Source: an uncultured Gammaproteobacteria bacterium (lineage in GTDB: Bacteria > Pseudomonadota > Gammaproteobacteria > CAYNNN01). Taken from it: 64,000 nucleotides of DNA. The stretch lies in contig CAYNNN010000003.1 in assembly GCA_964398665.1 (NCBI GenBank), positions 55 to 64,054 on the forward strand, in the 5' to 3' direction. Of the stretch, positions 27,613 through 37,159 are shown in pieces (the first letter of the stretch is position 1; each line of letters begins with the position of its first letter). The notes under the pieces were generated by a model that saw nothing but the letters and a program-made list of their open reading frames with translations, did not search any database and was not told the origin of the DNA. Position numbers and translations under genes: made by a program.

Positions 27613-29427
27613 TTACGATCTTTCGATGTGCGCCTGATACGCCCGCCAGCCCCCCAAGTGCGTAATATCCGCCGCACTTGCCAGCGCAGTCGGCTCGCAA
27701 ATAAACCCACTGTACCAACGCCCATCCGCCAGTTCCACCTTGCCAATCCCCAGCGGTGCGGGAATACCCGCCACAAACGAGCCGAATTGCGCGGTGGGCA
27801 AACGCCAGATTTCCACCTCAATCGCCGCGCCATTGGCTTCATCCCGTACCATGCCGGGGCGGAACGGTGGGCCACCTGCCAGTGCGTACAAGCGGTAACA
27901 GGCAGCACTGTATGTTTTTGCTACCAACTCCCCACCGCGCTCGGTTAGTTGCCAATTGAGCGGCAACCCTTGCAAGTGTGCGCCGCATACCACGACTTCG
28001 ATGCGGTCATCTACCCCCGCTGCCTTGGCTGATGACGGCGGCAATGTCTGTCCCGTTGCCCCCAGCGGCAATTGCAAGGCTTGTTGCCAACGGTTGGCAA
28101 GGCTCAGTAAGCGGTTGTCGCTAAAGGCGCGGGAAAACAGCGTCACCCCAAACGGCAAACCGTTTTCCAGAAAACCCGCAGGCATTGCCACTGCGGAACA
28201 ATCCAGCAAATTCATGAAGTTGGTGTAATACCCCAAATGGCTGTTAAGGCGGATCGGGTCGGCATCCACTTCGGCGATGGTATAGAGCGTCCCGGCTGTG
28301 GGCGTGAACAGGCAATCGAAATGCTCTAGCAACGGCTGTACTTGTTGGTAATACGCCTGCAATTGATATTGCGCCCGAAACACATCCTCTGCTCGCGCCT
28401 CCGCCTGACTGGCAAGGATGTCGCGGATCACCGGCAGCATGGCAGCGGCATCAACCCCTGCGGTAGCAATCCGCCGTTCCGCCACCCACGGGCCTTCGTA
28501 CAGCAGCTTTGCCGCTTGCAGGAACGGGGTAAAATCCACCCGCTGGCATTCGCCGCCCAACTGTTCCAATGTCTCCACCGTCGCCGCAAAACAGGCTTGC
28601 GCACTGGCATTGCCAAAAAATTGAAGTTGCTCGTCCTGCGGGATGGCAAAGCGGAAAGTGGATTTAGCAGGCACACCGTCATTACGCCGATTGGTGTCAC
28701 GGTTAGGGCGGGCAAACGCATCCTGTGCATCAAACTGTGCAGCAATATCAAATACCTGTGCTGCATCATCCGTGGTGGTGGCAAAAATACTCACGCAATC
28801 CAGACTACGGCAGGCAGGTACAACCCCGTGTGTACTCAACAAGCCCTTGCTGGGTTTCAAGCCGACAATATTGTTGAATGCCGCAGGCACTCGCCCCGAA
28901 CCGGCGGTATCTGTCCCCAAGGCAAACGTCACCAGACCCAATGCCACTGCCACCGCCGAACCGGAACTCGACCCACCGGAAATATACGCAGGGTTGAAAC
29001 TGTTGCGGCACGCCCCCCACGGCGAACGCACCCCCACCAGTCCTGTGGCAAACTGATCCAGATTGGTCTTGCCCAAGGGAATCGCTCCCGCCTTGAGCAA
29101 TTGCGCCACCACAAACGCATCGTCGGACGGTACGTAAGCAAACTCGGCACACCCCGCCGTGGTCGGGATTCCGGCAAGGTCGATATTGTCCTTGATTGCA
29201 AACGGCACGCCGTACAAGGGCAAGGTATCCGGGCTATGCCCCTCCAGCGCATCCAGATAGGGCTGGAGTTGCGCACGGCTCAGGCGCGTGATCCAGACAT
29301 TGTGTGCGGCATAGCTTTCACAACGAAGCAGCAATTCATCCAGCAATTGCGCTGGCGTTAATGTGCCACTGCGATAGGCCGCCTGAAGTGCCACAATGGT
29401 CATGTTCAGTTGGGAAAAATCCATCAC
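27613..29427 (-). CDS. atzF: allophanate hydrolase (amidase-signature family)
   Basis: 604 aa, GGSSSGSAVAVALG...GTDTAGSGRVPAAF amidase signature plus AtzF C-terminal domain; overlaps carboxylase stop. Confidence 0.85.
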   Translation of the reverse strand: MMDFSQLNMTIVALQAAYRSGTLTPAQLLDELLLRCESYAAHNVWITRLSRAQLQPYLDALEGHSPDTLPLYGVPFAIKDNIDLAGIPTTAGCAEFAYVPSDDAFVVAQLLKAGAIPLGKTNLDQFATGLVGVRSPWGACRNSFNPAYISGGSSSGSAVAVALGLVTFALGTDTAGSGRVPAAFNNIVGLKPSKGLLSTHGVVPACRSLDCVSIFATTTDDAAQVFDIAAQFDAQDAFARPNRDTNRRNDGVPAKSTFRFAIPQDEQLQFFGNASAQACFAATVETLEQLGGECQRVDFTPFLQAAKLLYEGPWVAERRIATAGVDAAAMLPVIRDILASQAEARAEDVFRAQYQLQAYYQQVQPLLEHFDCLFTPTAGTLYTIAEVDADPIRLNSHLGYYTNFMNLLDCSAVAMPAGFLENGLPFGVTLFSRAFSDNRLLSLANRWQQALQLPLGATGQTLPPSSAKAAGVDDRIEVVVCGAHLQGLPLNWQLTERGGELVAKTYSAACYRLYALAGGPPFRPGMVRDEANGAAIEVEIWRLPTAQFGSFVAGIPAPLGIGKVELADGRWYSGFICEPTALASAADITHLGGWRAYQAHIERS

Positions 29428-36100: not shown

Positions 36101-37159
36101 TTACAGTTTGCCGTCTGCCGCCAGCTTCATGTAATGGCTGTCAAAGCGCAGCTTGAGGTTAGCTTTGTCACCGGTCAGCTTGCCGCCTGGGAAAACCATG
36201 CCGACCGAGCCGGCATTTTTTGCATGGCTTCCCAGCAAGCCGTGGTCGAAGGAAAACTGGCTGACCAGCTGCATGGTTTTGGGTAACTCGGCACCATTGG
36301 TAAAGGTGACCGCATCGGTCGGGTTATAAAACATCCGGGTGGTTGCCAGTTGGGCCTTATAGCCTGCCAGGTCCGTCCCGGCAGCCTTGGCCATCGCCGT
36401 CAGGGCGTCGGCATCACCTTTTTGCATCAGGGCCATGATCTCATACCAGGCGCCCACGAGCGCCTTGCCCAGCTTGGGATTGGCCTTGAGGGTGTCGGTA
36501 TTGACCACCATGAGATCAATAATCTCGCCGGGAATGGCGCTGGAATTGAAGACCTGACTGGTATTGGGCTGTGCTGCAATTTCCGAGAGCAGGGGGTTCC
36601 AGGTGACCGCCGCCGTGACATCACTGGAACCGAAGGTGGCGACCATATCCGCGTCGGAGGTATTGACCACGGTAATGTCTTTTTCGGAAAGCCCGCTTTT
36701 TTCCAGACCACGCGCCAGCAGATAGTGCGAAACCGAGAGTTCCACCAGATTGACTTTCTGCCCTTTGATGTCAGCCAGCTTCTTGTCTTTGCCCTTCAGT
36801 ACCACGCCATCATTGCCATTGGAGAAATCGCCAATAATCAGCGCGGTGGAATCAACCCCCCCGGTAGCCGGGATAGTCAGCGCATCCATGTTGGTCATCA
36901 CGCAGCCATCAAATGCACCTGCGGTGTATTGATTGATGGACTCCACATAGTCATTGACCTGGACAATCTCGACCTTGATGCCATACTTGTCCGCCCATTT
37001 TTTCATGATGCCGGAACTGGCGGCATAATCCCACGGCATCCAGCCGGCATAGATGGACCAGGCGACTTTGAAATTTTCCTTGGGCGCGGCGTGAACCGCA
37101 AAGCTACATAGCAGAACCAGCAGGAACAGGCTGGATTTTTGCCAGAAATGGCGCAGCAT
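36101..37159 (-). CDS. ABC transporter substrate-binding protein (NMT1/THI5-like, NitT/TauT family), signal peptide
   Basis: MLRHFWQKSSLFLLVLLCSFAVHA signal; start ATG 37157-37159 preceded by GGAGAT; first gene downstream of the guanidine riboswitch. Confidence 0.8.
   Translation of the reverse strand: MLRHFWQKSSLFLLVLLCSFAVHAAPKENFKVAWSIYAGWMPWDYAASSGIMKKWADKYGIKVEIVQVNDYVESINQYTAGAFDGCVMTNMDALTIPATGGVDSTALIIGDFSNGNDGVVLKGKDKKLADIKGQKVNLVELSVSHYLLARGLEKSGLSEKDITVVNTSDADMVATFGSSDVTAAVTWNPLLSEIAAQPNTSQVFNSSAIPGEIIDLMVVNTDTLKANPKLGKALVGAWYEIMALMQKGDADALTAMAKAAGTDLAGYKAQLATTRMFYNPTDAVTFTNGAELPKTMQLVSQFSFDHGLLGSHAKNAGSVGMVFPGGKLTGDKANLKLRFDSHYMKLAADGKL

Follow-up and report, generated by a model that had tools for sequence, protein, structure and literature searches.

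A probable guanidine carboxylase operon with two guanidine riboswitch motifs and a sigma-54 type promoter element

A seven-gene operon for the probable use of guanidine

In the window (the whole stretch of DNA analysed here, 64,000 nucleotides) we found a chromosomal operon that very probably allows free guanidine to be used as a nitrogen source via the guanidine carboxylase pathway; we put the probability of this reading at about 90%. The operon consists of seven ORFs, all on the minus strand, in the 5ʹ to 3ʹ order: substrate-binding protein (SBP), permease and ATPase of an ABC importer, DUF1989 gene 1, DUF1989 gene 2, carboxylase, and allophanate hydrolase. A preliminary description had placed a seven-gene operon in the region 27613-37159; all the ORFs were present, and the range corresponded to the base, from the stop codon of the hydrolase to the start codon of the SBP. 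The gaps at the consecutive junctions were 9, -4, -4, 11, 68 and -4 nt. The co-directional arrangement claimed earlier was correct, whereas the claimed spacing of 0-12 nt or overlaps failed at the junction of DUF1989 gene 2 and the carboxylase gene, where the 68-nt spacer contains a second riboswitch. The same genes had been called independently on a metagenome contig of identical sequence, with the allophanate hydrolase called as 603 aa; exact copies of the proteins were found only on an NCBI contig and in Logan assemblies. All seven genes are presumably carried on a single transcript. What was observed directly comprises the genes, the two RNA motifs, the residues of the carboxylase signature described below and the conservation of the layout.

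Importer and putative deiminase genes

The first gene (36101..37159, minus strand) encodes a protein of 352 aa with a Sec signal peptide, the SBP of a NitT/TauT-type ABC importer and a putative guanidine binder. It matched TIGR03427 with 557 bits (cutoff 334), as well as Pfam NMT1 and NMT1_2; a comparison with the PDB revealed distant relatives only and no close solved structure. The permease (35270..36091, minus strand; 273 aa) was recognized by Pfam BPD_transp_1 (72 bits), and its nearest NCBIfam families were TauC, SsuC and NtrB, with every score under its cutoff. The ATPase (34503..35273, minus strand; 256 aa; Pfam ABC_tran, 115 bits) begins before the permease gene has ended, with an overlap of 4 nt at the permease stop, and its translation contains the Walker A motif (GTSGCGKTT), the LSGG signature and Walker B. 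The equivalog match of the SBP, together with the adjoining permease and ATPase, places the importer in the TIGR03427 type, and guanidine is its likely ligand.

The importer bears on the question of whether the operon serves guanidine detoxification instead of nitrogen assimilation. Guanidine is toxic, many guanidine riboswitches control exporters, and degradation of guanidine would also detoxify it. However, an importer of the high-affinity type as the first gene of the operon would be senseless for detoxification alone, there is no Gdx/SugE exporter in the operon, and the sigma-54/NtrC-like promoter signals (see below) point to nitrogen scavenging. The presence of an importer instead of an exporter therefore argues for assimilation, and we regard detoxification as extremely improbable.

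The following two genes encode DUF1989 paralogues, predicted to be the two subunits of a CgdAB-type carboxyguanidine deiminase. The first one (33751..34506, minus strand; 251 aa; UAAP1 type) matched PF09347 with 205 bits and TIGR03425 with 337 bits (cutoff 206), and the second one (33101..33739, minus strand; 212 aa; UAAP2 type) matched PF09347 with 231 bits and TIGR03424 with 342 bits (cutoff 285). Each protein was thus above the equivalog cutoff of one of the two families called 'urea amidolyase associated protein'; the paralogues are adjacent, 11 nt apart, with one from each clade, as in CgdAB gene pairs. Homologues of the second paralogue in 80 genomes showed 75-85% identity to it, the best one (85%) being from a Pseudomonadota MAG; relatives that share the operon layout include strains of Vibrio, Psychromonas and Marinobacterium. 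A PDB search with the DUF1989 protein returned no CgdAB structure, the nearest entries being the distantly related TMAO demethylase and structural-genomics DUF1989 proteins (E about 1e-10).

Carboxylase and allophanate hydrolase

The predicted guanidine carboxylase (29424..33032, minus strand; 1202 aa) matched TIGR02712 with 1845 bits (cutoff 1304) over model positions 1-1201. The biotin carboxylase, carboxyltransferase (CT_A_B and CT_C_D) and biotinyl/biotin carrier domains are combined in one chain, with every Pfam domain found, and the biotinylation motif AMKM is present in the translation. Only a weak Shine-Dalgarno sequence precedes the gene. Among solved structures, the one nearest to the protein is the urea carboxylase of K. 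lactis (3VA7, 5I8I), which shares the same domain architecture and gave an end-to-end alignment (residues 2-1198) with 1139 bits. In this alignment T699-I700-D701 corresponds to A1328-I1329-N1330 of K. lactis, so that residue 701 (also position 701 of TIGR02712) is D, and Asp955 corresponds to D1584, with the GLGDV motif aligned as well. In PMC11410670 these two positions (N1330 and D1584 of K. lactis) serve to tell guanidine carboxylases apart from urea carboxylases. As judged from the translated sequence, the window protein is a carboxylase with the published guanidine-carboxylase signature, Asp701 plus Asp955, whereas the K. lactis enzyme, which has Asn1330, acts on urea. In addition, the hydrolase is fused to the carboxylase in yeast, which has neither DUF1989 partners nor a riboswitch, whereas in the window the hydrolase is a separate protein.

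These residues also bear on the alternative that the genes encode a true urea carboxylase/urea amidolyase pathway from urea through allophanate to ammonia, in which the DUF1989 proteins would be accessory factors and urea would enter through the ABC system. Such a pathway would agree with the K. lactis enzyme as the closest solved structure and with NCBIfam, in which every component has a 'urea' name ('urea carboxylase', 'UAAP1/2', 'putative urea ABC transporter'); guanidine carboxylases also turn over urea, although less so (PMC12186494). However, Asp701 occupies the place of the Asn that marks urea-specific enzymes, the genes would be controlled by two separate guanidine-sensing riboswitches, and ykkC RNAs reject urea in vitro (PMC7266159). 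Moreover, the urease genes ureABC are located directly downstream of the operon and an ATP-consuming urea route would therefore be redundant. We consider the urea pathway very unlikely.

The preliminary description had read the operon as a route from guanidine through carboxyguanidine and allophanate to NH3, and this reading is supported by Asp701/Asp955, by the two guanidine riboswitches and by the equivalog matches of the DUF1989 proteins. It had also taken the riboswitch for the decisive context. The riboswitch does support guanidine, but it is not the sole decisive evidence, because the Asp/Asn signature can be read from the carboxylase protein itself.

Another possibility is that the main substrate is not free guanidine but a guanidine with substituents, such as methylguanidine or the guanylurea that arises from metformin. 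Operons with guanidine riboswitches and this pathway have been tied to the breakdown of methylguanidine in halophiles (PMC12508155) and, in bacteria from wastewater, to that of metformin and guanylurea. Here, however, no 2-oxoglutarate dioxygenase, lyase, guanylurea hydrolase or metformin hydrolase was found in or beside the operon, which makes a substituted substrate highly improbable in comparison to free guanidine.

The last gene of the operon (27613..29427, minus strand) encodes an allophanate hydrolase of 604 aa if translated from GTG at 29427, or of 603 aa if translated from ATG at 29424. The frame opens before the carboxylase gene ends, the start of the one overlapping the stop codon of the other. 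The protein matched NF006043 with 862 bits and TIGR02713 with 813 bits, contains both the Amidase domain (PF01425, 286 bits) and the AH_C domain (PF21986, 176 bits), and its translation includes the amidase signature GGSSSGS.

Guanidine-I riboswitch and its leader

The riboswitch claimed upstream of the operon was identified as a Guanidine-I aptamer (ykkC, probably subtype 1) at 37221..37330 on the minus strand, 61 nt upstream of the first gene and hence outside 27613-37159. It matched Rfam RF00442 over the full length, scoring 82.5 bits (E 3.5e-13) where the gathering score is 63, and the conserved segments CUAGGGUUCCG, GGUCCGAGAG, ACACGG and GGGA.AAAAGCCCGGGAG were all found. As to the choice between subtype 1 and subtype 2 (ppGpp, PRPP, NDP), no other Rfam family gave an overlapping match at E up to 10, and the gene context is that of classic subtype 1. 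Our first regular expression for Guanidine-I missed true aptamers (for example those of loci L010 and L057, both recovered by Rfam), and the counts of Guanidine-I based on regular expressions are therefore lower bounds.

Two segments of the putative expression platform (37160..37220, minus strand) are complementary to the aptamer: the Shine-Dalgarno region CUGUGGAG at 37175-37168 to the P2 strand CUUCACAG at 37263-37256, and GCCGUGU at 37197-37191 to the core sequence ACACGGC at 37247-37241. Both pairings occur in the minimum-free-energy fold. A search of the platform for an intrinsic terminator revealed no terminator-like site, and the fold of the whole leader was not more stable than that of shuffled sequence (z = -0.05). 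For these reasons, the model of Shine-Dalgarno sequestration was built on the local complementarity and on related loci. In 25 distinct related leaders the cognate aptamer:Shine-Dalgarno duplexes had a mean energy of -18.8 kcal/mol vs -15.3 kcal/mol for the non-cognate ones (permutation p about 5e-5), a difference that may be inflated by the GC content of the genomes. The complementarity between the aptamer and the Shine-Dalgarno region points to translational control of the first gene.

Guanidine-II riboswitch in the 68-nt spacer

The spacer that separates DUF1989 gene 2 from the carboxylase gene contains a Guanidine-II (mini-ykkC) riboswitch (33050..33098, minus strand), whose end is 17 nt away from the ATG of the carboxylase. 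It is composed of two hairpins, each with the GGACGACC loop region; both loops read GG-ACGA-CC, with ACGR tetraloops closed by G-C, and the motifs are 24 nt apart. In an 11-kb search the match to RF01068 (28.9 bits, E 0.014) was under the gathering score of 32 bits. The P2 stem contains one C.U mismatch. The energies of the hairpins, -7.0 and -9.8 kcal/mol, are inside the family range (medians -8.8 and -9.1 kcal/mol).

The motif was present at the equivalent junction in 42 of the 80 related loci, and five of the seven positional homologues tested by Rfam passed the gathering score (32.5-44.9 bits), the two others being below it. The loci for the alignment were picked by a regular expression for the loop motif; the invariance of the loops is thus true by construction, and the covariation of the stems alone provides independent evidence. 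Among the 36 aligned sequences, 84% of the cells were paired and 9 of 13 pairs had double-sided changes. The covariation score was 0.488, in comparison to 0.136 in shuffles (none of the 500 as high), and it fell to 0.17 or less in the control in which the partners were slid by 1-3 columns.

Promoter signals upstream of the aptamer

A sigma-54 type -24/-12 promoter element, TGGCACGCATCTTGC, is located at 37396..37410 on the minus strand, the strand appropriate for the operon, 94 nt upstream of the aptamer core. It is an exact TGGCAC-N5-TTGC and the only such match in the 64-kb window. A similar motif was found upstream of 42 of 65 related Guanidine-I aptamers, 39-182 nt from the core (mostly 76-125 nt), against a background rate of 0.014 per 260 nt, and the element appears to be conserved in such operons across many Gammaproteobacteria. 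Upstream of the -24 element, at a distance of about 64 nt, we noticed an NtrC-like palindrome, TGCACCTGTCGCGTGCA (37474..37490, no strand assigned), with one mismatch to TGCACC-N5-GGTGCA; the window contains only two sites with at most one mismatch to this consensus. The palindrome is a candidate enhancer site, and the operon is probably under sigma-54 control.

None of the guanidine-riboswitch papers returned by a literature search mentioned NtrC or sigma-54. In Burkholderia cenocepacia, the genes for a 'urea carboxylase', an ABC periplasmic protein and a 'related aminomethyltransferase' are listed as NtrC-dependent under nitrogen limitation (PMC5491218). This cluster, BCAS0269-0272 of strain H111, contains the same gene families in the NtrC regulon, which matches the sigma-54/NtrC-like signals of the window. 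The 'urea carboxylase-related aminomethyltransferase' was taken as the DUF1989 homologue; the likeness is one of gene descriptions, and the Burkholderia evidence consists of expression data. Riboswitches are not discussed in PMC5491218.

Together, the signals could form a three-layer AND gate in series, with the sigma-54/NtrC promoter responding to nitrogen limitation, Guanidine-I controlling the importer and deiminase, and Guanidine-II controlling the carboxylase and hydrolase. We give this arrangement a little better than an even chance.

The neighbouring urease genes

The genes ureA, ureB and ureC were found within 10 kb in none of the 80 related loci. The adjacent urease was accordingly rejected as a conserved partner, and ureABC is therefore probably not part of the guanidine system; read-through from the operon into ureABC is a weaker possibility. 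An Rfam match to '5_ureB_sRNA' was not accepted as evidence of an RNA gene.

Comparison with known systems

According to PMC12186494, which summarises Sinn et al. (2021), guanidine assimilation operons in Raoultella terrigena, in Klebsiella michiganensis and in Erwinia rhapontici have the order Guanidine-I, ABC importer, carboxyguanidine deiminase genes, Guanidine-II, guanidine carboxylase, and allophanate hydrolase, which is the order in the window. The window differs from them in a host of 60% GC, in ureABC directly downstream and in the sigma-54 promoter motif, of which the guanidine papers searched make no mention. The biochemistry of the guanidine carboxylase pathway has been established in Pseudomonas syringae, as cited in PMC11410670 and PMC12186494. 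The same sources indicate for P. syringae pv. tomato DC3000 (Schneider et al. 2020) the three enzyme steps predicted here (guanidine carboxylase, the DUF1989 heteromer CgdAB and allophanate hydrolase) and, as in the window, control by Guanidine-I and an ABC transporter encoded next to the enzymes.

The guanidinase (GdmH) pathway, known from Synechocystis PCC 6803 and from Nitrospira inopinata, resembles the window operon in Guanidine-I control, a guanidine importer and the use of guanidine as a nitrogen source. However, in that route a Ni-dependent hydrolase of the arginase family makes urea at no ATP cost and urease is then needed, whereas the window operon has no guanidinase homologue and the adjacent urease is probably unrelated.

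Proposed mechanism and significance

In the proposed mechanism, transcription would probably start from the sigma-54 type promoter and be tied to nitrogen limitation through an NtrC-type activator. In the absence of guanidine, the Shine-Dalgarno region of the first gene would be masked by base pairing to the P2 strand and core of the aptamer; upon guanidine binding the aptamer would fold and the ribosome-binding site would be freed. The importer and the two DUF1989 subunits could then be translated, aided by the tight or overlapping junctions, while Guanidine-II in the 68-nt spacer would gate translation of the carboxylase. The allophanate hydrolase may be translationally coupled to the carboxylase, since its start overlaps the carboxylase stop. 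The ABC system would import guanidine, which the carboxylase (Asp701), with ATP and bicarbonate, would convert to carboxyguanidine; the DUF1989 heteromer would deiminate this to allophanate and NH3, and the allophanate hydrolase would release 2 NH3 and 2 CO2. We infer both the substrates and the on-switch mechanisms of the two riboswitches from sequence features.

The pathway and the operon layout are already known, and the operon is an ordinary instance that adds no new biology. The conserved sigma-54 motif and the complementarity between the aptamer and the Shine-Dalgarno region may be regarded as small refinements to the regulation of such operons. The earlier suggestion that the operon was hidden under urea annotations is true for the database labels, the JGI relatives being named 'urea carboxylase' or 'hypothetical protein', but not for the pathway and layout, which have been published (PMC12186494, PMC11410670). 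The practical value of the finding is in annotation: the curated models still give 'urea' names, so that guanidine use will go unnoticed when the nitrogen cycle is inferred from metagenomes, as long as the Asp/Asn signature and the riboswitches are left out of account.

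Gene content of the operon

Genes were assigned with Pfam and NCBIfam profiles, and the range proposed for the operon (27613-37159) proved exact: its ends are the ATG of the first and the stop codon of the last of seven genes, all on the minus strand. The first encodes the substrate-binding protein (SBP; 36101-37159; TIGR03427 'putative urea ABC transporter substrate-binding protein', 557 bits, cutoff 334). It is followed by the importer permease (35270-36091) and ATPase (34503-35273) genes, two DUF1989 genes (33751-34506, TIGR03425, 337 bits, cutoff 206; 33101-33739, TIGR03424, 342 bits, cutoff 285), the gene of a 1202-aa carboxylase (29424-33032; TIGR02712 'urea carboxylase', 1845 bits) and the allophanate hydrolase gene (27613-29427; NF006043, 862 bits). 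The same genes were called on an identical metagenome contig. The junction gaps, in gene order, are 9, -4, -4, 11, 68 and -4 nt; five junctions thus fit the spacers of 0 to 12 nt or overlaps given in the preliminary description, and the exception is the 68 nt that separate the carboxylase gene from the second DUF1989 gene. Translational coupling of the hydrolase to the carboxylase is implied by the overlap of its start with the carboxylase stop.

Two guanidine riboswitches

A full-length Guanidine-I aptamer (37221-37330, minus strand; Rfam 82.5 bits, E 3.5e-13, gathering score 63) lies upstream of the SBP gene, with 61 nt between its end and the start codon. We looked for a terminator-like site downstream of the aptamer and found none. 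In the minimum-free-energy fold of the leader, the aptamer P2 strand and loop CUUCACAG (37263-37256) is paired with CUGUGGAG (37175-37168), which includes the Shine-Dalgarno (SD) GGAG, and GCCGUGU (37197-37191) is paired with ACACGGC of the aptamer core. This two-part complementarity is also present in related leaders, where differing loops are matched by differing SD-flanking sequences. Among 25 distinct leaders, the aptamer:SD duplex had a mean of -18.8 kcal/mol for cognate versus -15.3 kcal/mol for non-cognate pairs (permutation p ~5e-5), a difference to which genome GC content may contribute. We infer from this pattern an on-switch at the level of translation: bound guanidine would stabilise the aptamer and free the ribosome-binding site of the first gene.

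Within the 68-nt spacer are two hairpins that share the loop region GGACGACC; Rfam matched the spacer to Guanidine-II (mini-ykkC) with 28.9 bits (E 0.014), slightly below the gathering score of 32. This sub-threshold match was tested in 80 loci, mostly from Gammaproteobacteria, that encode proteins 75-85% identical to the second DUF1989 protein. A tblastn and motif survey placed two such hairpins at the corresponding junction in 42 of the 80 loci; the spacer measured 66-726 nt in the 39 loci with the motif and both genes visible, and 7-49 nt, with two exceptions, in 29 loci without the motif. All seven related loci run through Rfam had Guanidine-I upstream of the SBP gene, and five had Guanidine-II above the gathering score (32.5-44.9 bits), the remaining two being below it, as in the window. 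The stems covary in an alignment of 36 spacers, with 84% of cells paired and double-sided changes in 9 of 13 pairs; the covariation score was 0.488, versus 0.136 for shuffled alignments (0 of 500 as high) and at most 0.17 with partners slid by 1-3 columns. Since the aligned loci were chosen by a loop-motif regex, loop invariance is given by construction, which does not apply to stem covariation. The window element has one C.U mismatch in P2, and the predicted stabilities of its hairpins (P1 -7.0, P2 -9.8 kcal/mol) are both inside the family range. We conclude that the operon carries two guanidine riboswitches. Guanidine-II is separated from the carboxylase ATG by 17 nt, a placement consistent with translational control of this gene.

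Carboxylase codons 5-6 (Val-Leu) read GUCCUG, to which CAGGAC of the first Guanidine-II hairpin is paired in the minimum-free-energy fold of 33015-33104 (minus strand). In principle, a GUCC within the sequence that encodes the conserved VLIANRG could also be a pairing partner for GGAC of the invariant loop region.

Guanidine or urea as the substrate

Guanidine carboxylases are distinguished from urea carboxylases at two positions (Kluyveromyces lactis urea carboxylase numbering): Asp instead of Asn at 1330, and a conserved Asp at 1584 (PMC11410670). On alignment (5I8I numbering), T699-I700-D701 of the carboxylase was opposite K. lactis A1328-I1329-N1330, and a GLGDV motif was aligned at D1584; residues 701 and 955 were both confirmed as Asp in the translation. 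Both DUF1989 paralogues belong to families shown to be carboxyguanidine deiminases (PMC12186494, PMC11410670). The guanidine-pathway reading is therefore supported by the Asp701/Asp955 signature, two guanidine-sensing RNAs and two deiminase-family paralogues. The riboswitch had been regarded as the decisive context, which is partly right, but the carboxylase signature by itself also separates guanidine from urea.

Related systems

The window layout, with Guanidine-I ahead of the importer and deiminase genes and Guanidine-II ahead of the carboxylase and hydrolase genes, is described for Raoultella terrigena, Klebsiella michiganensis and Erwinia rhapontici, all of which grow with guanidine as their only nitrogen source (PMC12186494). 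The pathway enzymology is established for Pseudomonas syringae, according to the accounts in PMC12186494 and PMC11410670. By regex alone, the full layout was found in at least 15 of the 80 related loci, and it is probably present in about 30, allowing for Guanidine-I aptamers missed by the regex. Given the published layout and this spread, the window is a typical instance of a known, widespread system. The operon had been described as hidden under urea annotations; this applies to database names only (NCBIfam names are still urea-based, and JGI relatives are named 'urea carboxylase' or 'hypothetical protein'), whereas pathway and layout were already published.

In an alternative layout, the two DUF1989 genes and the carboxylase gene follow Guanidine-I directly, the spacer is 8-20 nt, Guanidine-II is absent, and the importer genes are downstream (for example, related loci L005, L015, L020, L023, L029, L050 and L054 of Marinobacter; L028, L038 and L067 of Azospirillum). 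In several Marinobacter loci, the permease gene of this downstream importer is itself preceded by a second Guanidine-I aptamer. Guanidine-II thus seems to be present only where importer and deiminase genes precede the carboxylase.

Genomic neighbourhood

The operon is flanked by ordinary chromosomal genes (rpoA, der, glucokinase, hprK, rpoN, prfC, uvrB, polA, dxr), and neither signs of mobile elements nor extra genes for substituted guanidines were found around it in the window. Upstream and divergent are a manganese (yybP-ykoY) riboswitch (37544-37728, plus strand, 82.3 bits) and, downstream of the latter, a GDT1-family divalent cation/proton antiporter gene (37595-38290, plus strand), the standard Mn-exporter arrangement.

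Downstream of the hydrolase gene, after a 392-nt gap (27221-27612), co-directional ureA (26918-27220), ureB (26584-26907) and ureC (24872-26575) are followed by an OsmC-family gene (24443-24862), all on the minus strand. Of the larger ORFs tested across the window, none was identified as a ureD/E/F/G accessory gene, and urease was present within 10 kb in 0 of 80 related loci, so the linkage is not conserved. Only weak hairpins follow the hydrolase stop (GCGCC..GGCGC, 27610-27593; GCTGG-CCTA-CCAGC then TTTT, 27564-27547), and transcription from the guanidine operon may therefore read through into ureABC. On the opposite strand of the gene for the urease alpha subunit, Rfam matched '5_ureB_sRNA' (26140-26426, plus strand, 97.9 bits). 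Many pairs in this match are non-canonical, and it is most likely due to the conserved coding sequence of urease rather than to an sRNA gene; the model is based on a Helicobacter antisense RNA overlapping the homologous coding region.

Putative sigma-54 promoter signals

The sigma-54 consensus TGGCAC-N5-TTGC has a single exact match in the 64 kb window, at 37410-37396 (minus strand), which places it 94 nt ahead of the Guanidine-I aptamer core; an NtrC-like palindrome with one mismatch is at 37490-37474. These signals and the manganese riboswitch have in common a ~210-nt intergenic region. Among 65 related Guanidine-I aptamers, 42 had TGGCAY-N5-YTGCW upstream of the core, at a distance of 39-182 nt (76-125 nt in most), the background rate being 0.014 per 260 nt. 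NtrC-like GCAC-N-GTGC palindromes were also noticed ~180-200 nt upstream in some related loci (L006-L080). The rpoN gene (11858-13348, minus strand) lies inside the window, as does an HPr kinase-like gene (9937-10893, minus strand), and the host thus encodes the sigma factor required by the predicted promoter. The 'urea carboxylase' cluster of Burkholderia cenocepacia is a member of the NtrC regulon under nitrogen limitation (PMC5491218); the terms NtrC and sigma-54 were absent from the guanidine-riboswitch literature found by our search. These sequence signals suggest that a conserved sigma-54 layer may stand above the two riboswitches in these operons, which would be a modest refinement of the known system rather than a new one.
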